A DNA stretch of 64,000 bases. It comes from a virus (Duplodnaviria > Caudoviricetes). Below the pieces are notes generated by a model that was not told where the DNA came from, ran no database searches, and saw only the letters and a program-made list of their open reading frames with translations. Both the position numbers and the translations under genes were made by a program. Of this stretch, positions 11,241 to 21,720 are shown in pieces. The first letter of the stretch is position 1; every line of letters begins with the position of its first letter. The stretch spans positions 1-64,000 of the IMG/VR virus record IMGVR_UViG_2929541355_000001; one strand, 5' to 3'.

Positions 11241-12115
11241 CGGTCCGCCCTTCCAACCTCCCGCGGCTGCGCCGGCAGACACTGCGGAACCTGAAAGACC
11301 CGGCATCAGCGCTGCGTGCCAACACCGACGCCGACATGGTGCCGGGCCTGGATGCCCTTGCCTCGCACCTGGACGTCGCTGACATGTTCTGGATTCAGCA
11401 GGACATGGCCGCGCTCTCCATGCACGCCGGTGAGCAGCTGGCGGCCGCGCGGTGGGCGACCGCGGACCGGCCCGCACCATGCGGGCTGCTGTACTGGCAG
11501 GGCGGCATCGGGCACATGGACGCCCAGGGCGTACAGATCCCCGTTGAGGCGTGCGTGTGGGGCCCGTATGAGGGAGGGATGCTGCTGTGGCTGCTCATGT
11601 CCCGGGACCGGCTCGTCGCCGAGACCCGGAAGAAGGGCCACGCTTTCGACATCGTCGAGGAGAAGGTGCCCCCGCTGGTCCCTATCTACGGCGCCACGCT
11701 TCCCGTCACCACGGACCCGGCATCCATGGCTGACCTGGACCCCGGCCTGCCGCAGCCTGTTGTCGCAGCGCTGGCGTCCGCCTGGCTCCTGATGCAGCAG
11801 CCCCTCCTCATCGACCGCACCCGAGAGCGGGCAGACAAGCCCACGTCGCGCGCCTACGCACGAGACGGATTGCCCACACCCGACGTCACCGTCGTCGACC
11901 TGCGCCGCCAGTACACCCCGCAAGACCAGGACCCGGACGCCGACGGAAACGGCCGGCACTACCGGCACCGCTGGGTCGTCTCCGGGCACTGGCGCAACCA
12001 AGCCCACGGACCTGAGCAGTCGCTACGCAGGCAGACGTGGGTGCCCGCGCACATGAAGGGGCCTGACGGGGCGCCACTCTTGTCGACGGAGAAGGTGAAT
12101 GTCTGGCGGCGGTGA
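11237..12115 (+). CDS. hypothetical phage protein
   Basis: C-terminal RWVVSGHWRNQAHGP....RRQTWVPAHMKGP motif. Confidence 0.75.
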   Translation: MTVRPSNLPRLRRQTLRNLKDPASALRANTDADMVPGLDALASHLDVADMFWIQQDMAALSMHAGEQLAAARWATADRPAPCGLLYWQGGIGHMDAQGVQIPVEACVWGPYEGGMLLWLLMSRDRLVAETRKKGHAFDIVEEKVPPLVPIYGATLPVTTDPASMADLDPGLPQPVVAALASAWLLMQQPLLIDRTRERADKPTSRAYARDGLPTPDVTVVDLRRQYTPQDQDPDADGNGRHYRHRWVVSGHWRNQAHGPEQSLRRQTWVPAHMKGPDGAPLLSTEKVNVWRR

Positions 12116-12130
12116 CCTTCACGCACAGCT

Positions 12131-12164
12131 GCGCCCCGCTTGGCCTGACGGCTGAGCGGGGCGC
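12131..12164. terminator. hairpin at the junction of the rightward and leftward arms
   Basis: GCGCCCCGCTTGGCC-TGAC-GGCTGAGCGGGGCGC. Confidence 0.7.
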
Positions 12165-12256
12165 TTCCGTCGTTGTCGCCCGGTGGTGGCATCGGCTTCG
12201 AGGCGGGGCCACCACCGGGCAGGAACAGCGTGGCACGGGGCACTGACAGGCCGCGG

Positions 12257-12568
12257 TCAGTGTTCGGCGGCATGGGCGTGTAGCCGGGCCAGCCCTTTAT
12301 CGGTGAGCCATACCGGTGTGCCGTTGAGGAGGCAGAGGTCGCACTTGGTGGGGCAGGCGTGCGCAGCGAACTCCAGATGCCCGTAGCTGACCTCGCGGGC
12401 GTACGCGGCGTCCACGACCGTCTGCGGATAGGTGGCGCAGAGGGTTCGCCAGGGCGTGGGCAGCTTGATCCGGGCCCACCCAGTGGAGGCTCCGAAGGCT
12501 CTCTGATGGTCGCGGATGGCTTCGAGGAGGGTGAGGGTGGTGATGTCACCCGCTGACGAATCGGCCAT
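12257..12568 (-). CDS. hypothetical protein (paralogue of C-domain of 13044-13622)
   Basis: DITTL.LL.AI.DH...W.TLCA.YP..VV.AAY.RE...GHL...WLTDKG shared. Confidence 0.65.
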   Translation of the reverse strand: MADSSAGDITTLTLLEAIRDHQRAFGASTGWARIKLPTPWRTLCATYPQTVVDAAYAREVSYGHLEFAAHACPTKCDLCLLNGTPVWLTDKGLARLHAHAAEH

Positions 12569-13044
12569 CAGATACCACTGTTACGGCGTTGGCGGCGCAG
12601 GCTACGGGCGACCTCGGCCCCGACTACGGCAGGATCGTCCCAGCCGTGAACGGTGACCGTAGTGGCGGCCTTGAGGGGTTCCGGGCATTCGTGCGGGTCC
12701 TCCACGGTCCACTGGCCCCACTGGCGGCATGCGTCGCAGCACCCCCAGCCTTCGACGACGATCTCGTGGTACCGGTACGGCGTTCCGTCAGGATGGGTGG
12801 GCCGCCCGTTCTGGCGGTCCGGCAAAGCAAGTCCGCAACCGTGTTCGCCGACGCTGACGAGCTTGGCGCAGCCGCCGCTGCCCTCCAGGCGCTGCTTGAT
12901 GCGCTGCTCCGGGCTGACCCGTGTTGCGCCACCGGCGTCCTCTGCCTGGATCCGCAGGGAGCGAACTTGGAACACGCAGACCGCTGTCCCGGCGCAGGCG
13001 GTGAGGGATACGGCGAGGCTGATGATGCTGAGGGTCAGGGACAT
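12568..13044 (-). CDS. membrane-anchored hypothetical protein
   Basis: N-terminal hydrophobic helix; coupled to both neighbours. Confidence 0.55.
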   Translation of the reverse strand: MSLTLSIISLAVSLTACAGTAVCVFQVRSLRIQAEDAGGATRVSPEQRIKQRLEGSGGCAKLVSVGEHGCGLALPDRQNGRPTHPDGTPYRYHEIVVEGWGCCDACRQWGQWTVEDPHECPEPLKAATTVTVHGWDDPAVVGAEVARSLRRQRRNSGI

Positions 13045-13622
13045 CAGGCGCCCGCCTTCAGGTCGGTGAGCTTGGCGTCGCCTTTGTCGGTGAGCCAGCT
13101 GGTGCGAAGACTGACGCCGCAGTCCAGGTGGCCGCGGTCGTCTTCGCGGATGTACGCCGCAGTGACGACTTTCTCCGGGTAGACCGCGCACAGCGTCCAC
13201 CACGCCCCGGGGAGCTCCCACCGGCGCTTGCCGGGCGGGACTGGGCGTGTGCGGTGGTCGTCGATGGCCCGGAGGAGCGCCAGGGTGGTGATGTCGGAAC
13301 GCTTCGGCTCTGGCGGCGGGGTGCGCAGAGGGGCGTGCCGCACCACCTTGGCGGCCTCGTTGGGGCGGTTCGGGTCGAGGTAGCGGTGCCCGTCGGTGTT
13401 GACGAGGAACTCGGTGTACTCGATCAGCTGCGTGCCGTCGGGTTCGGTGATGATGCTGGTCGGGTCCTGGACGGATACGCCCTTGGGTTCGATGCCGTGC
13501 TCGCGCAGCCACGCCTGAAGTTTGGCGTCTCGCGGGGTGCCGCAGATGTAGGGCCAGGTCTCCGGGGTGACGAGGAGGACCGGAGGGGCGGCGGGTTCCG
13601 GGGAAGGGAGCATGTTTTCCAT
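13044..13622 (-). CDS. two-domain hypothetical protein
   Basis: domains shared with 12257-12568 and 48524-49015. Confidence 0.7.
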   Translation of the reverse strand: MENMLPSPEPAAPPVLLVTPETWPYICGTPRDAKLQAWLREHGIEPKGVSVQDPTSIITEPDGTQLIEYTEFLVNTDGHRYLDPNRPNEAAKVVRHAPLRTPPPEPKRSDITTLALLRAIDDHRTRPVPPGKRRWELPGAWWTLCAVYPEKVVTAAYIREDDRGHLDCGVSLRTSWLTDKGDAKLTDLKAGA

Positions 13623-13696
13623 GCTGTGCCCGTGCGCTCGGTTTGCTGCCCCCGCTCGGGTGCGGGCCGAGGTCGAGGGCAGGGCGGGTGCTGGGG

Positions 13697-14737
13697 TCAG
13701 TCCTGCCAGGTGCCGCGGAGTGCGGACAGGGTGAAGCCGGGGCCGAATGCGGCCGCGACGCCGAGTGCCCCGTCGGTGGGTGGGGTGGTGTGGGTGCGGG
13801 CGAGGATGTCGAGGACGCTGACCCCGCCGAGGTTGCCGTTCTCGTTGAGGGAGGCGTAGGAGTGGTGGGCGTCCACGTCGTCGAGTCCCAGGGCTTGGGC
13901 GACGTCGCGGATGATGCTGGGCCCGCCGGGGTGGATGACCGCGAAGTCGACCAGGTCGTTGCCGAGCCAGTCACGAAGGACGGGCATGGTCTGCGCGGCG
14001 GACGCGGGGGCTTGGCGGGTGGAGTCGAAGTGCATGCCGGACTCGTCGAGGCGGCCGGCGTACCGGTCGAGGCTGTCGGGGAGCCAGTACTCCAGGGTGT
14101 CGTCGATGCGGAGGCCGGGCTGGAGCTGCGCGCCGGTGACGATGGTCGCGGCCGCGGAGTCGGCGAACAGCGCCTTGTAGATCATGGAGGGGATCGACGT
14201 GTCGGCGTGGTTGTAGGACGTCGACAGGCACTCCGTCGCGACGACGAGCACGGTGTCCGCAGGCCGGGCGGTGACGTAGTCGTGCGCGCGGATGAGGGAG
14301 TGGACCCCGCCGGCACACGCCAGGGTGGTCATGGGGAGGCGCCGCGTCGTTGAGGGCAGGCCCAGGGCGGCGATGAGGTGCACGTCGAGGTTCGGGACGG
14401 AGTACCCGGTGGCGTGCGACGTGATGACCGCGCTGATGTCCGACGGCTGGAGGCCGGCCGCAGCGATGGCCCGCGTGGCGGCGTCGGTCGCCATGGTCAG
14501 GGCGTCGTCGAATGCGGCCTGGGTTCGTTCGTGCACGCCGGCGTCCCCGGCGACGGTGGGGGACTGCAGCGGGCGGGTGAAGTGCCGTGTGCTCACCCCG
14601 CAGTTGCCTATCGCCCGGAGGATGACGCTCAGCCTCGGGTGGTCGTGGTGCCGGGACTGGATGTCGTCGAGGATCTCGGCGGTCGTGACCTTGTGGGCGG
14701 GAAGGGTGACCTGGGGGGTGGTGACATGGGCGGGCAC
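13697..14737 (-). CDS. type III polyketide synthase (PhlD/RppA/germicidin-synthase-like)
   Basis: catalytic triad motifs LACAGG, IHPGG, NGNLGG; LFAD and AAFGPGFT; GGAGG RBS before GTG at 14737. Confidence 0.93.
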   Translation of the reverse strand: MPAHVTTPQVTLPAHKVTTAEILDDIQSRHHDHPRLSVILRAIGNCGVSTRHFTRPLQSPTVAGDAGVHERTQAAFDDALTMATDAATRAIAAAGLQPSDISAVITSHATGYSVPNLDVHLIAALGLPSTTRRLPMTTLACAGGVHSLIRAHDYVTARPADTVLVVATECLSTSYNHADTSIPSMIYKALFADSAAATIVTGAQLQPGLRIDDTLEYWLPDSLDRYAGRLDESGMHFDSTRQAPASAAQTMPVLRDWLGNDLVDFAVIHPGGPSIIRDVAQALGLDDVDAHHSYASLNENGNLGGVSVLDILARTHTTPPTDGALGVAAAFGPGFTLSALRGTWQD

Positions 14738-14843
14738 GGGTCCTCCACGGGCTCGGGGCAGTTCGCCCAACTTACGACTGGGTGGCTGGATCATTGCCCC
14801 TGGCTGGTTCTGGTGGTGCCGGTGTGACGGGTGAGGTTGCGGG

Positions 14844-15680
14844 CTATGCGGTGCCGGGCGGGGTGTGTGCGGGGGAGCGGAGCGGTGTTCGGGGCCCGGA
14901 ACGTTTCTCCTTGTTGAACACGAGGATCATGAGGCGGGCCCCTTTGGCGGACTCGGGTGTGGCTGAGCACATGGTGACCCAGCCGGGGCCGTGCGTGGCG
15001 TGGTTGAGGGGCCGTTCGTCACCGTCGGGGTGGAGGGTGACGCCGGGTGCTTCGTACAGGGGGCCGGCGACCGGGTCGGCGAGGACGTCGGCTTCGAGCT
15101 GCTGGAGGGTGGGGTCACGCCGAGCGGCGAGCGCGCCACGGAGCTGGGGCAGAACGCGCGGCGCCCACTGATGTTCCCAGTCGGTGAGGACGGTGCGGGC
15201 TTCGTCGGAGAGGCACATCCAGCGCAGGGTGTTCTCCGGGATCTGGCCGGACGGGAACATCGACGCCCAGTTCTTGTTGTGCGCGATGACGTTCCACGCC
15301 GCGTCCCCCATGTACGCCATGTGCTGGATGCCGTCGAGGGCGGCCTGCCATGCCGCGGGGACTTGGTACCCGGTCTCGGGGTACAGGTGGCGGGGCGGTT
15401 CCTCCTCGCGTGCGTACCGGTACAGCAGCACCCATTCATCCTCGGTGAGCCGATACAGGCGGGCCACGGCGCGCAGCAGGTCGTCGGACGGGTTGTGGTT
15501 CCGCCCGTTCTCCAGCAGGTAGCACGTGTTGATGGGCTGGCCGATCAGTTCGTCGACCTGGTGCTGGGAAAGGCCTGGGGCTCGGCGTCCGGAGCCGGCG
15601 GGGCGGGACATCCCGACGGTCCTGGGGTCCGTGCGGTCGCGTCGGTCTCTCAGAAACTTCTTCAGCGACTTCTTGTGCAT
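14844..15680 (-). CDS. MmyB-family regulator (XRE-HTH + PAS-like ligand-binding domain)
   Basis: L..FLRDRR...P..VG....GRRAPGLSQ..V...LENGR..NPS..LL..VA; AYMGDAAWNVIAHN; NTLRW. Confidence 0.88.
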   Translation of the reverse strand: MHKKSLKKFLRDRRDRTDPRTVGMSRPAGSGRRAPGLSQHQVDELIGQPINTCYLLENGRNHNPSDDLLRAVARLYRLTEDEWVLLYRYAREEEPPRHLYPETGYQVPAAWQAALDGIQHMAYMGDAAWNVIAHNKNWASMFPSGQIPENTLRWMCLSDEARTVLTDWEHQWAPRVLPQLRGALAARRDPTLQQLEADVLADPVAGPLYEAPGVTLHPDGDERPLNHATHGPGWVTMCSATPESAKGARLMILVFNKEKRSGPRTPLRSPAHTPPGTA

Positions 15681-15722
15681 GTGTGGCAATCCCCCGTGGA
15701 TGCGCCGTAGTTGGACTGCGGC

Positions 15723-15771
15723 AGTCTATTTAATGACGGTGGCTTTCGTAATAAAAACTGCAGGAAGATAA
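15723..15771 (-). promoter_or_regulatory. AT-rich promoter of the mmyB-like gene with MARE-like box
   Basis: minus-strand TTACGA-N17-TAGACT (15751-15723); adjacent AAAACTGCAGGAAGATAA (15754-15771). Confidence 0.5.
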
Positions 15772-16003
15772 ACGGCTGGTGGTCCGTCATGCTGTGCGTG
15801 ACGCGGTCCTGGCCTTGCGGTTTCATTGCCAGTGATCACGTGGATACACCGCTCTACGGGAACCGCACTTCCCGGAACCACGGTTACGGGGAGAGCGTAG
15901 GATCGGCGGCCGAATTCCGGTGTGTGGTATCGGAATGCTTCGCAGCACGGCCCCGGTTTCTACGCTTCCCCCACCAATCCACCCCACTGCTCTGGGTAGG
16001 GGT

Positions 16004-16531
16004 TCACAGGCTGTCGGCGCTGCACTGGCCGTCGGCCTTCTCTGCTGTCCGGGGCTGCTCGGCCTGCAGCTCGGCCACCTGCCGCTCTGCTGCGATTGCC
16101 CGCTCGTGGGCCTGCCTGGTGACGTCTCGCATGTCACGCCGGCCGGTGTGCCCAACCCACAGCTCATCCCACGCCTGCTCAAGGTCCCGGATCCGCTGCC
16201 GGAGCCCGTCCGGGTCCCGCTCGGTACGAAGCTCGGCCAGTTCGGCCTCCATGCGCTTCATGTCGCTCGCGGTGTGCTTGGCCTGGTTCTCCTTGCCCTT
16301 CGCGTAACCGCGGTGGAACGCTGCCCGCCGGTCCTCCCGCGGGGCTTCCTGAATCGACGACAGCAACGACTCAGCAGCATCCCGGTGTGCGGCCGCCGCC
16401 TCGGGGTCGGTGAGTTCCAGTTCCTCAAGGCCTACGCCGTATGTGTAGCTGCGGCACAGCTTCTCGGCGAGCTCGGCCAGGCGCTGCTCCCGGGTGGGCT
16501 CGGCGTTGTCGGCTGGCGGCTGGTCGGTCAC
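16004..16531 (-). CDS. coiled-coil hypothetical protein
   Basis: RBS GGAGG, coupled ORF. Confidence 0.6.
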   Translation of the reverse strand: MTDQPPADNAEPTREQRLAELAEKLCRSYTYGVGLEELELTDPEAAAAHRDAAESLLSSIQEAPREDRRAAFHRGYAKGKENQAKHTASDMKRMEAELAELRTERDPDGLRQRIRDLEQAWDELWVGHTGRRDMRDVTRQAHERAIAAERQVAELQAEQPRTAEKADGQCSADSL

Positions 16532-16827
16532 TTGATGGCCTCCGTGGTGGTGGGCTGCTGCGCCTGGTCGAGGGCGTCGCGGTACTCGCGGGCGACGAGG
16601 GCGGCGTCTGCGGGCGCCCAGCCACCTTCGTGCCAGGTCTGGTAGCGGTCGCAGAGGGCCCGCACGCGGTCGACGGCGTCCTCGGTGTCCTCCAGGCGGC
16701 GGACGAGGTCGCGGAGTTCTGTGGTGAACCGGTCGGCTTCCTCGGGGAGGAGGGCGCCGCGTCGGGCTCGGTCGATGAGGTGGTTGAGCCGGGCTTCGAC
16801 CACGTCGGACGGCAGGCACTCGGTCAT
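16528..16827 (-). CDS. hypothetical protein
   Basis: RBS AAGGAG; L..LIDRARRGALLPEEA motif. Confidence 0.65.
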   Translation of the reverse strand: MTECLPSDVVEARLNHLIDRARRGALLPEEADRFTTELRDLVRRLEDTEDAVDRVRALCDRYQTWHEGGWAPADAALVAREYRDALDQAQQPTTTEAIK

Positions 16828-17036
16828 CGGGTCGGCTCCTTTCGGTGCGTGGTGGTGCAGTCGGGGCAGAGGTCGCGACCGGGCTGGCGGGTCCAGCCGT
16901 CGCGCCGGCCGTCGGCGCGGACCTGCGCGGCGGTGCGGGACACGAACCGGGGTCGGACGGCGGCCGAGTTGGGGCAGTCGTTCTGGCCGGTGGGTCCGTC
17001 GCAGGCGATCTCGTAGCCCAGATGGTGGGCGGTCAT
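16824..17036 (-). CDS. small Zn-binding hypothetical protein
   Basis: CDG...C...GW...DLCPDC. Confidence 0.65.
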   Translation of the reverse strand: MTAHHLGYEIACDGPTGQNDCPNSAAVRPRFVSRTAAQVRADGRRDGWTRQPGRDLCPDCTTTHRKEPTR

Positions 17037-19166: not shown

Positions 19167-19799
19167 TCATGCGGCGTCGCCGAATAGGGCGGGTTGACCG
19201 TTGATCTCGGCGGACCAGGCGAGGGTGGCCGGCAGGTTGGTGTCGGGGCCGAAAGCTATGTATGTGCCGTCGGCAGTGAGGCAGCCGAACTCGTGGGCGA
19301 GGCGTAGGCGTCGGCGGGAGTTGACCCGTCCCATGTGGACGGTCTTGCCGCGGTTGATGGCTTCGGCTGCGAGTTGGCGTGCGGCTCGTCCGGTCTTCCA
19401 TTCGGTGGATCCGGCCAGGAACAGAACGTCGAGGTCGTCCCAGGGAATGAGCCCGTGCTCGCACCCGTCTTGTGCAGCGAACGCGGCGGGGGCTCCCAGC
19501 TGGCGGATGCGGGGGAGCCAGGGCAGGGACTCGGCCAGGGTGCCGGCGGCGTCGAACGGAATGTCGGGGGCGACGGCCCACAGGCAGCGGTCGGCGCCGT
19601 AGCGGGTGACGGTGCGCTCCAGCCAGTCGAACCAGGCAGCGGCACCGGGCCAGCCCTTGCCGAACTTCCCGTTGTCGCAGGCGTACAGCGCTCCGTCGGG
19701 GATGCGGTTGCCCTGCGCCGGGGTCGTCATGCAGCCGAGGAGACCGGCTGTCATGGCGGTGCGGACGTCAGGCCCGGACGGTGTGGCGAGGTAGAGCAC
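19167..19799 (-). CDS. TGT-fold / DpdA-like putative deazapurine DNA-modification protein
   Basis: motifs DNGKF, VAPD, AQDG, LFLAGSTEWK, HMGRVNS, TADGT in TGT-barrel order; next to a Vut transporter. Confidence 0.6.
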   Translation of the reverse strand: MLYLATPSGPDVRTAMTAGLLGCMTTPAQGNRIPDGALYACDNGKFGKGWPGAAAWFDWLERTVTRYGADRCLWAVAPDIPFDAAGTLAESLPWLPRIRQLGAPAAFAAQDGCEHGLIPWDDLDVLFLAGSTEWKTGRAARQLAAEAINRGKTVHMGRVNSRRRLRLAHEFGCLTADGTYIAFGPDTNLPATLAWSAEINGQPALFGDAA

Positions 19800-20307
19800 G
19801 ACGCCACCTCCTGACGGTGACGACTGCGGCGACGGGCAGGAGGGTGGCCCAGGCGAGTTTCCCGATGAGCTGTCCGCCGACGGTGGCGGTGGTGATGGGG
19901 AACCCGGCGAGGAGCAGGAACAGCAGCGTGTCGACGACCGCCCCGACGGCGTTGGAGGCGATGACGGCACGGGCCCAACCGCGGGACCGGAGCGGGGTGT
20001 ACACGCCCATGTCGGCCAGTTCCGCGGCAAGGAACGCGGCGGCGGATGCGACGGCCAGGGCGGGGCTGGTAGCCCACGTGAGGGCGGCGCCGGTGGTGAT
20101 CCCAGCGAGAACCCAGCCGCGGCCGAGCGTGTCTTGCACGGTGTCACGAAGGAGGAGCGCGGCCCCGGCGGCGAACGTGCCAGCAGTGGTGAGCAGGCCG
20201 GCGCCGACGGGGACCATGCCATACCGGGCGGTCAGATAGTTCGCGGCGGTGATGGCGCCGACGTACCCGGTGAGGGCGGCGGGGCCAGCAAGGCGGCGCT
20301 CGGTCAC
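19768..20307 (-). CDS. Vut_1/YhhQ-family queuosine-precursor transporter
   Basis: AANYL, LLLRDTVQDTLG, ALASAAAFLAAELAD..VY, SN.VG.VVDTLLF. Confidence 0.85.
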   Translation of the reverse strand: MTERRLAGPAALTGYVGAITAANYLTARYGMVPVGAGLLTTAGTFAAGAALLLRDTVQDTLGRGWVLAGITTGAALTWATSPALAVASAAAFLAAELADMGVYTPLRSRGWARAVIASNAVGAVVDTLLFLLLAGFPITTATVGGQLIGKLAWATLLPVAAVVTVRRWRRALPRHTVRA

Positions 20308-20472
20308 TTCATGCTCCTGGTCTGTGCGTTGTGCGCGGCGGTGCGGGTCTGGTGGACGTTGTGGCGGCGGGTGCGGGATCCTCCGTGGCTGGTGCACAGC
20401 TGGCCGGGGGTACTGCCGCAGGACGGGCAGGCGACAGCCAGGGCGGGGAAGTGGGCGGGGTCGGTCAGGCAT
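20304..20472 (-). pseudogene. Zn-finger ORF whose ATG is one base out of frame
   Basis: RBS AGGAG + ATG at 20472; high-GC3 frame LTDPAHFPALAVACPSCGSTPGQLCTSHGGSRTRRHNVHQTR lies +1. Confidence 0.45.
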
Positions 20473-20553
20473 GTGGGTCTCCTGGGGAAGGGGCCTGTTC
20501 TCAGGGTGGCGCGGACTTGGGCCGGTGCTCCCCCTGCTCAACCTTCGAGTGCC

Positions 20554-21027: not shown

Positions 21028-21651
21028 CTACGCGGTGGTGCCGGCGTCCTCGATGTCGTCGTTGATGAGATATCCCCTCATGGTCGACAGCAGGTCGGCC
21101 GCCTCCCGCAGGTGCCCGTGCGCTACCGCGGTCGCTTGCTGCGCGTTCAGCAGCGCACGCAACAGCGCGGATACCGGCTCGCCCGGGACGCCACCGCCCG
21201 CCATCTGGATCATCTGCGCGCCTTCTAGGTGCCGGAGGGCGCGGGATATCTGCTTCAGGGATTCAGGGAGCGGTTCAAGGACCGCGGCAAGGCCATCAAC
21301 CTTGGAGAAGGCGTTGCCGTGGACGGTGCCGGTAAGCCCGCTCTCGCCGTGGGCGCCCTCGGTGTCGGGGGTTTGGTGGTCCGCGGCCTGGTCGTACGTA
21401 CCGGGCTTCCAGTCCGCAGACAGCGTGATCGCCTTCTCCGACTCGTACCGCTCCGGTTCGTCGTCCGTGGATGGCCACCTGACCTCTTCGTGGTAGGCGT
21501 CGACGAGAACACCGTCGCGGGACCCGTCGAAATCGCCCGGATCTTCGGCAATGTCGAGGTAGATAGGGGTGTCGTCGGGGAGCCCGTCGAGGGCTTGGCG
21601 GAGCTGCCCGGCGGTCCATACCTGCGGGACGTGTTCAAACGTGTCGGCCAT
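21028..21651 (-). CDS. DUF6225-like protein fused to a helical domain
   Basis: FEH.PQVWTAGQLR.AL.GLPDDTP; -10 CATTCT 6 nt upstream (leaderless). Confidence 0.65.
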   Translation of the reverse strand: MADTFEHVPQVWTAGQLRQALDGLPDDTPIYLDIAEDPGDFDGSRDGVLVDAYHEEVRWPSTDDEPERYESEKAITLSADWKPGTYDQAADHQTPDTEGAHGESGLTGTVHGNAFSKVDGLAAVLEPLPESLKQISRALRHLEGAQMIQMAGGGVPGEPVSALLRALLNAQQATAVAHGHLREAADLLSTMRGYLINDDIEDAGTTA

Positions 21652-21720
21652 GCGCACAGAATGCCGGACCGGGCTGACGGTGCGTGGGCGAACACGGCTG
21701 CACCCCGGCCGCGGCAGCGC

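Follow-up and report, generated by a model that had tools for sequence, protein, structure and literature searches.

A regulator gene and a polyketide synthase gene on a pZL12-like element

We analyzed a stretch of 64,000 nucleotides (hereafter the window), which is the first 64 kb of the IMG/VR virus record IMGVR_UViG_2929541355_000001, a sequence of 92,286 bp with terminal repeats, and in particular two adjacent genes encoding an MmyB-family transcriptional regulator and a type III polyketide synthase (PKS). The G+C content of the window is 65-73%. Among the 98 open reading frames (ORFs) called in the 92-kb record, 56 match the Streptomyces plasmid-phage pZL12 (GQ919031) in collinear order, including those for SSB, an FtsK/SpoIIIE-type protein (86%), the terminase (73%), the portal, the tape measure and ParA. 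pZL12 is a complete phage genome according to its listing, and a title in the reference list of PMC4487206 describes it as a plasmid that has a lytic phage cycle. The element, which combines phage structural genes with plasmid partition and transfer genes in collinear order, is a pZL12-like phage-plasmid; it is not an integrated prophage, the context assumed in an earlier annotation of the window (the original prediction). Its portion between 10 and 32 kb is variable and few ORFs match pZL12 there, yet the regulator and the PKS are kept in this collinear phage-plasmid of 86-90 kb, in the same order, as pZL12.99 (52% identity) and pZL12.100 (56%), respectively.

The PKS frame extends over 13697-14794(-), corresponding to 365 amino acids (aa), with a G+C content at third codon positions (GC3) of 0.92. 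Translation is likely to start at GTG 14737, since a GGAGGA motif 4 bases upstream is conserved and most relatives are 346 aa long, which covers 95% of the 365-aa frame. Both halves of the enzyme were recognized by Pfam (Chal_sti_synt_N, 59.4 bits; Chal_sti_synt_C, 41.5 bits; cut-off 27 each), and Cys160, His288 and Asn321 (numbering of the 365-aa ORF), as well as P352 in the GFGPG loop, are invariant in 91 of 91 family rows. A model built from 22 sequences (predicted local distance difference test, pLDDT, 91.3) resembled S. coelicolor THNS (1U0M; template modelling score, TM, 0.93; root mean square deviation 1.9 Å; 34% identity) and Gcs (3V7I; TM 0.93; 31% identity), both of them stand-alone bacterial enzymes with the same Cys-His-Asn triad. 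By sequence, the top solved relatives were THNS (193 bits), Gcs (152 bits) and M. tuberculosis Pks11 (128 bits). The two Pfam halves, the triad and the predicted thiolase-type fold identify the putative enzyme as a type III PKS of the chalcone synthase (CHS) superfamily, and the intact frame with its Cys-His-Asn motifs agrees with what had been claimed for this gene.

Several known enzymes were considered as possible orthologues. Cys106, Cys168, Tyr224 and Ala305 of THNS, which we take to be markers of RppA/THN synthases, are replaced by A, L, G and G in the window PKS and by A/S/T, L/I, G (87 of 91 rows) and G (91 of 91) in the family, while an RppA-like gene located beside a P450 gene (L072; L, G and H numbers are our own handles) displays C, C, Y and A; orthology with RppA was ruled out on these presumed markers. 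DpgA was ruled out by the score against the NCBIfam equivalog NF042429 (86.6 bits versus a cut-off of 425). PhlD sits in a phlACBD-type operon, and no such neighbours were present in any annotated context, this candidate being judged by its neighbours. Because the RppA markers are absent and the DpgA score falls below the cut-off, the predicted enzyme is assigned to a subfamily of its own, distinct from RppA, Gcs and DpgA. The analysis thereby defines a type III PKS subfamily whose members are now labelled "PhlD" (many relatives in RefSeq) or RppA-like ("similar to RppA" in the pZL12 record) in databases.

The regulator frame reaches TTG 15689 (ORF 14844-15689(-); GC3 0.87), although the start is likely to be ATG 15680, which stands behind a conserved GGGGG ribosome site. 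Its product matched the Pfam families HTH_31 (31.7 bits, cut-off 27) and MLTR_LBD (45.1 bits, cut-off 26.3). A model built from 19 sequences (pLDDT 89.6) had MltR (3PXP) as its best Foldseek match (285 columns, E 4.5e-9), followed by PAS domains. The sequence profile reached 3PXP weakly (E 0.0011, 15-16% identity), and the head-group residues Tyr227, Tyr258 and Asn176 of MltR lie beyond the end of that alignment. The predicted protein is a member of the MmyB/MltR family, with a helix-turn-helix (HTH) followed by an MLTR ligand-binding domain; it shares with MmyB and MltR the XRE-type HTH and the PAS-like ligand domain, the relation to MltR being distant in sequence. The presence of an MmyB-type regulator directly ahead of the PKS is therefore confirmed, both genes being intact and adjacent on the minus strand and both domains scoring above their cut-offs. 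Unlike MmyB in its setting, the window regulator has no TetR-type furan or butyrolactone receptor beside it, and it is paired with a one-enzyme cassette instead of a multi-gene cluster. Neither protein matched a PADLOC defence model or a PHROG family. Control by bldA was rejected, TTA codons being essentially absent (1 of 34 regulator genes and 1 of 34 PKS genes; nine further matches upstream of start codons were discounted). MltR, the sole solved member of the family, binds myristic acid according to PMC3406030, so the ligand of the window regulator may, by analogy, be lipid-like or amphipathic.

Two features of the enzyme could point to a product destined for the envelope, i.e. long-chain alkyl-resorcinols or alkyl-pyrones inserted into the membrane or the spore coat, as for SrsA, ArsB/C and the mycobacterial Pks11/18. 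First, Pks11 and Pks18 were among the best sequence and fold matches, with an identity to Pks11 of 27-28%, a level so low that it also speaks against this function. Second, Gly occupies the position equivalent to CHS Gly256 in 87 of 91 rows and that equivalent to CHS Ser338 in 91 of 91, positions that presumably limit the size of the pocket, which suggests a roomy active site. On the other hand, srs-type PKSs are accompanied by a methyltransferase and a hydroxylase, and such partners were not seen beside the cassette in the annotated contexts. Fatty-acid-like ligands are bound in the regulator family according to PMC3406030, which would fit a lipid product. All in all, we regard a role as envelope lipid modifier as quite improbable.

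No promoter was found by an E. coli-type consensus scan of positions 12000-17000, so that the promoter assignments in Table 1 rest on conservation. In 36 aligned regulator upstream regions, from chromosomal and phage-plasmid copies, the word CATSATG forms a conserved column block, and the consensus common to both kinds of copies comprises an AT-rich part (TTTTCTTCGG..AAT.TTTA.TA..AAAG), a TAGACT-type -10 and the ribosome site. The position matrix of this block scored 66.7 at its own site; there was no second site in the 92-kb element (best score elsewhere -7.3), and the next matches merely read this site again, shifted or on the opposite strand (best 2.5 versus 5.3 for the best shuffle). The original prediction had given the PKS an AT-rich promoter of its own. 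The AT-rich block, whose last position (15771) is also that of the interval in the original prediction, in fact precedes the regulator, while the PKS does have a separate conserved block, likewise common to chromosomal and phage-plasmid copies. GTAnGTTG is found in most copies about 35-45 nt before the PKS ribosome site, and in many copies the word CAGGGGCAA stands at the -35 place. The combination of a good -10 with an odd -35 has the look of an activator-dependent promoter. The PKS-block matrix scored 40.6 at its own site, with no credible second site in the 92-kb element (next match 19.1 versus 19.6 for the best shuffle). As neither promoter block has a second copy in the element, no tie of the regulator to lysis, lysogeny or transfer genes emerged. 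The non-coding stretch upstream of the regulator (15690-16527) is about 840 bp long in the window versus about 370-630 bp in annotated plasmids, and in phage-plasmid copies the further words CCGYGCTGCGAAGC and CTCTTCCCGCCAC are conserved 270-330 nt upstream of the regulator.

Table 1. Features of the regulator-PKS locus. Coordinates refer to the window, except for the hairpin copies, which are numbered within their loci.
Feature	Position	Strand	Remarks
Palindromic word CAGCATG (7 bp)	15788..15794	-	CATSATG in the family; some 25 nt upstream of the AT-rich block
AT-rich promoter-like block of the regulator	15722..15771	-	Consensus TTTTCTTCGGgcAATtTTTAtTAccAAAg...TAATTAGACTG; -10-like TAGACT at 15723-15728
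MmyB-family regulator gene (predicted)	14844..15680	-	278 aa from ATG 15680; XRE-type HTH, then PAS-like ligand-binding domain
Promoter-like block of the PKS	14766..14803	-	CCAGGGGCAATG ... GTAAGTTGGG; -10-like TAAGTT at 14769-14774; no TTGACA-like -35
Type III PKS gene (predicted)	13697..14737	-	346 aa from GTG 14737; GGAGGA at 14741-14746
ORF of 192 aa	13044..13622	-	Between PKS and hairpin; GC3 0.89
ORF of 103 aa	12257..12568	-	No family found (Pfam, PHROG, PADLOC)
Hairpin element (70-80 nt)	12171..12250	.	Where leftward and rightward gene sets converge
Hairpin copies	L010:7392-7468, L001:9298-9364, L012:6024-6102, L013:6505-6576, L016:6654-6720, L017:6088-6148

Recurrence of the pair in phage-plasmids, other plasmids and chromosomes

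The association of the two genes was examined in three collections. In IMG/VR, 28 contigs, mostly of 83-99 kb, encode the PKS; all 24 assessable ones have the regulator upstream of it in the same orientation, at a distance of 59-537 bp, the PKS touching the contig end in the other 4. A search of PLSDB with the PKS returned 83 records at E<=1e-40, and 38 of the best 60 that were compared show at least 44% identity; the corresponding search with the regulator returned 63 records, of which the best 60 were compared. Most of the 38 PKS plasmid records (31) are 85-102 kb in size. In 31 of them the PKS is preceded on the same strand by the regulator at no more than about 500 bp, and in 35 at no more than 1.2 kb, the distance being 889 bp with two small ORFs in one record and 1.1-1.2 kb in three; in one further record the genes are divergent and 3.7 kb apart, and two have no regulator among the matches listed. 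Finally, in 301 Streptomyces species represented by one genome each, the PKS (E<=1e-60) was found in 25 genomes at 29 places, of which 28 could be assessed (one contig was too short). At 22 of these 28 loci, chromosomal or other, in 21 genomes, the regulator lies 75-230 bp upstream of the PKS. Three of the six remaining places have a PKS of 41-43% identity, and in one of the six the PKS contains a stop codon and the regulator is encoded on the opposite strand. Since the two-gene module recurs in this way, the pair in the window is not a one-off capture, and its expected recurrence elsewhere was observed.

Some variations were noticed around these copies. Five large plasmids (four of about 220 kb, the fifth of 176 kb) are among the regulator matches listed and none of them among the PKS matches listed. 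Two or three family PKS genes coexist in genomes G276 (L036, L049, L052), G145 (L040, L050) and G169 (L024, L051). A second MmyB-type gene (36-38% identity) is found near the PKS in two chromosomal copies, adjoining in one and about 1 kb beyond in the other (L065:1410-2279; L070:18098-18985). A sister group of stand-alone PKSs (about 40% identity) resides on linear plasmids, where, in the two inspected (L073:6013-9165, L074:5977-9626), the PKS has as neighbours a TetR-type regulator gene in convergent orientation, a gene for a small ATP-binding protein and one of XRE type. The TetR-type gene is labelled as ScbR-family autoregulator-binding in one plasmid and as TetR/AcrR in the other, and a third record has an ScbR label under the match.

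To relate the pair to the phage-plasmid family, a terminase of pZL12 type was defined by at least 55% identity, and all 42 matching PLSDB records were compared. Both regulator and PKS are carried by 26 of the 34 plasmids with such a terminase. The other 8 appear neither among the best 60 PKS matches (down to 33.6% identity) nor among the best 60 regulator matches, and five more plasmids of 88-102 kb that bear the PKS gave no match to the terminase at this threshold. The two genes are gained and lost together. The terminase was present in 3 of the 25 PKS-positive species genomes, and when the 98 ORFs of the element were compared with 40 kb around seven chromosomal or large-contig copies and with a whole contig of 94.8 kb, the two cassette genes were the sole matches. 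The neighbours of chromosomal copies differ from place to place (MurT-type ligase, regulators of TetR and MarR type, acyl-CoA dehydrogenase, transporters of the MFS and EamA families, isochorismatase, short-chain dehydrogenase, acyltransferase). Across the annotated contexts they are wholly different, and no tailoring gene recurs.

A FastTree phylogeny of the PKS (95 rows; 41 database proteins from contigs below 83 kb or of 103-150 kb were left out) grouped the window enzyme into a 17-row clade (support 100), every row of which came from contigs of 83-103 kb or virus records. The pZL12 enzyme belongs to a second such clade (11 of 12 rows), and a clade of 40 rows is almost wholly made of large contigs (38 of 40). 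The contig-size label changes 9 times on the tree versus 27-32 times when shuffled, size being an imperfect proxy as the 94.8-kb contig is no phage-plasmid. The modules are mosaic: the S. californicus plasmid has a terminase of 94% and a PKS of 58%, and the NBC_01259 plasmid a PKS of 92% and a terminase of 64%. In several plasmids (H169, H181, H182, H184, H189, H199) the terminase is split in two or overlaid by HNH or LAGLIDADG homing-endonuclease annotations, which suggests an intron or intein.

The pairwise distances of PKS and regulator were correlated over 34 loci (r = 0.855; none of 999 permutations as high). The ratio of non-synonymous to synonymous substitution rates (dN/dS) ranged, over the four closest comparisons, from 0.23 to 0.40 in the PKS and from 0.16 to 0.42 in the regulator; against pZL12 it was 0.81 and 0.54, respectively, dS being likely saturated. 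Selection on both genes is purifying. The cassette could be imagined as a decaying hitch-hiker or one-off capture, functionless in the element, from its position in the variable part and from the 8 terminase-positive plasmids in which the pair is not among the matches listed. This possibility is contradicted by the intact frames and the invariant catalytic residues, by dN/dS values well below 1 in close pairs, by the plasmid and IMG/VR counts and by the well-supported clade of the window PKS, and we give it next to no probability. With its own promoter-like blocks and hairpin, its setting amid unrelated genes of the phage-plasmid, its absence from some relatives and its presence outside phages, the cassette has the predicted build of a moron. 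Taken together, these results show that it is mobile, selected and enriched in one phage-plasmid family.

Possible roles of the cassette

We lean, without great assurance, towards a self-contained, mobile, regulator-gated two-gene cassette that makes a small untailored polyketide and serves as cargo benefiting the carrier cell. The regulator would be made from its own conserved promoter-like block and, once bound to its ligand, would activate the PKS promoter with its good -10 and without a normal -35. Activation is suggested by this missing -35 and by MmyB, which PMC3406030 describes as an activator of the methylenomycin genes. The PKS, with no carrier protein or partner enzymes, would condense an acyl-CoA starter with malonyl-CoA into a small untailored product of pyrone or resorcinol type, either released or kept by the host cell. 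The cassette would act at the level of the host cell, as in lysogenic conversion, rather than being wired into phage decision circuits, and pZL12-like phage-plasmids would keep it for the benefit it brings to the cell that carries them. As originally claimed, no tailoring, export or resistance enzyme was recognized among the 10 neighbouring ORFs as far as Pfam and PHROGs see. MmyB regulators form a large family whose members are mostly orphans, and the PKS is a likely cognate enzyme of one of its branches.

Several observations weigh against this cargo model. The family PKS genes L040 and L052 have no regulator, and L051 has it on the other strand. The pair is not always contiguous either: in two plasmids the genes are separated, by a DUF6221 gene in that of NBC_01259 and by two small hypothetical ORFs in pCQ4 (L010:5859-6239, L015:4938-5593). 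Conversely, a regulator homologue of 54% identity occurs without a PKS in the S. melanogenes plasmid NZ_CP108296 (L011:5001-7685). No operator was identified, the regulator and PKS blocks sharing no consistent word (187 shared 7-mers versus 126 in shuffled sequences, with no common position). Lastly, retention in about three quarters of the phage-plasmid family could reflect a function for the element itself. As further observations on these loci, the L011 regulator gene is followed by a small ORF and genes for DUF3995, a sigma factor and SRPBCC, on a plasmid with a primase and ParAB, and a GCAATGA/CGATGA-like word, noted without statistics, is seen in both upstream regions of some copies.

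In a rival reading, that of the original prediction, the diffusible PKS product would be the ligand of the adjacent regulator, and the phage-plasmid would thereby sense carrier density and tune lysis, maintenance or transfer accordingly. The strict linkage of synthase and sensor, which are gained and lost together, agrees with such an autoinducer loop, as do the retention of the pair in 26 of 34 phage-plasmids and the fact that tailoring or export genes are neither needed for such a product nor found among the 10 neighbouring ORFs. The amphipathic lipid bound in the sole solved family member (PMC3406030) has the shape expected of alkyl-pyrones or alkyl-resorcinols. In the sister group, the PKS stands beside a TetR-type regulator in the two plasmids inspected, one labelled as ScbR-family, and the recognition helix TYxRLExG of the regulator is nearly invariant across copies, which also share both promoter blocks. 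On the other side, the cassette stands alone among housekeeping genes in chromosomes (the pair in 21 of 301 species genomes, the terminase in 3 of 25 PKS-positive ones), it occupies no fixed place beside recognizable lysogeny genes, and neither promoter block has a second copy in the 92-kb element. In addition, divergence is no greater in the ligand-binding domain of the regulators than in their DNA-binding part (mean identity 0.57 vs 0.59), unlike systems that split into signal dialects. We consider this loop unlikely. Of the phage-tuning module put forward in the original prediction, the self-contained and recurring two-gene unit stands; its phage specificity does not, given the occurrence of the pair in species genomes that mostly have no such terminase.

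Two kinds of known systems help to place this idea. The photopyrone of Photorhabdus is reportedly made by the synthase PpyS and sensed by the LuxR-type receptor PluR, and dialkylresorcinol is said to be made by DarABC and sensed by PauR. In these systems, a ketosynthase-type enzyme produces a pyrone or resorcinol that is sensed by a dedicated transcription factor, which makes them a model for an autoinducer; they differ from the window pair in their enzyme and receptor families, in their chromosomal location in Gammaproteobacteria and in that binding is reported for them. Arbitrium (AimR/AimP) of Bacillus phages uses a peptide signal, lies beside lysogeny control genes and has aimX as target. 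Like the window pair it places a sensor and a signal-producing gene on a temperate phage (the signal role of the window product being hypothetical), but it sits by phage control genes, while the window cassette has no found link to them and also lives outside phages. There is a small chance that a family of temperate phage-plasmids carries a polyketide sender-receiver pair, in which the PKS would make a diffusible molecule of alkyl-pyrone or resorcinol type and the adjacent MmyB-type regulator would sense it. Given that chromosomal and phage-plasmid copies agree in the recognition helix and in both promoter blocks, the element would then share one chemical channel with the host population. If this were true, a polyketide signal system would be known from a phage for the first time, and the element could listen to, or speak into, a host signal.

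The moron architecture and the retention in phage-plasmids, both compatible with the cargo model that we favor, would also suit an antagonistic or protective metabolite, which would inhibit germination or growth of non-carriers or block superinfecting phages, the regulator being a pathway-specific switch that answers a host metabolite. Gcs, which makes the germination inhibitor germicidin, is a near structural neighbour of the predicted enzyme. Single untailored type III PKS products are usually of low potency, which speaks against a weapon; in the same direction, no resistance or export gene (Pfam, PHROGs) lies beside the cassette, and no known defence-system model (PADLOC) was matched. MmyB-family members located in antibiotic clusters are pathway regulators, according to PMC3406030, and PMC10023795 refers to metabolites of Streptomyces by which infection with phages is blocked, although the latter reports no clusters for known anti-phage molecules in prophages. 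In our estimate, a weapon or shield function has a low probability.

For these elements, the enzyme has been mentioned before. In pZL12 and in S. leeuwenhoekii pSLE1 (LN831788), the two genes are annotated as "transcriptional regulator" and "type III polyketide synthase ... similar to RppA", and no more. The PKS of pSLE1 was noted in PMC4487206, which describes its neighbouring genes as not indicative of a natural-product cluster, and small biosynthetic clusters were reported in 13 of 2112 actinobacterial prophages, with T3PKS exclusively in plasmid prophages (PMC10023795). The statement that no characterized phage system of this kind exists is in line with our literature searches, in which the pairing of MmyB with a type III PKS, its family-wide retention and its function were not found (the pZL12 paper and supplements being beyond reach), and must be qualified by these earlier mentions of the enzyme. 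The present analysis shows the PKS to be one of the two members of a conserved regulator-enzyme cassette. Phages seldom carry biosynthetic genes; this cassette is kept by about three quarters of pZL12-like phage-plasmids in PLSDB and moves between chromosomes, large plasmids and phage-plasmids. It offers a minimal, tractable two-gene case of the role that a metabolite may have for a mobile element, as signal, weapon or surface change, and a direct test is possible because pZL12 and pSLE1 exist in cultured strains.

Neighbouring open reading frames and the downstream hairpin

Three of the 10 neighbouring ORFs have Pfam matches at E<=0.001 (HTH_17, Vut_1 and DUF6225), that to HTH_17 being just below its cut-off (26 versus 27 bits), and two match PHROG families of unknown function. 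The matches to Vut_1 (putative vitamin uptake transporter, 36 bits, PHROG 4899) and DUF6225 correspond to the upstream ORFs 19768-20541 and 21028-21657, and the other neighbours were without family. The 192-aa ORF that follows the PKS gave no match in Pfam, PHROG or PADLOC and has no counterpart in pZL12; the small ORFs found there in other phage-plasmids are different ones, or absent altogether. Between the PKS and the hairpin, phage-plasmids have at most two small ORFs, unrelated to each other, or none; the window has two.

The hairpin is likely to mark the end of the PKS transcript, as judged from its predicted fold (-36.6 kcal/mol, z = -3.3) and position. It has a 69-base match of 92.8% identity in pZL12 and is found, at 87-94% identity, in six phage-plasmid loci including pZL12, in each case downstream of the PKS. 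Overall, its conservation at the nucleotide level amounts to 84-94% identity and greatly exceeds that of the adjoining genes. No Rfam family matched positions 11800-16800. The hairpin is present in 30 Streptomyces plasmid records, including large ones without PKS, and it lies 3-2100 bp after the PKS stop codon in 14 PKS-bearing ones. In an alignment of 11 sequences, 46 columns are invariant, including the loop CGAAGCCGATGC. Since a plain terminator leaves this conserved loop unexplained, the hairpin may be a small RNA, act as a protein site or mark the boundary of a module.

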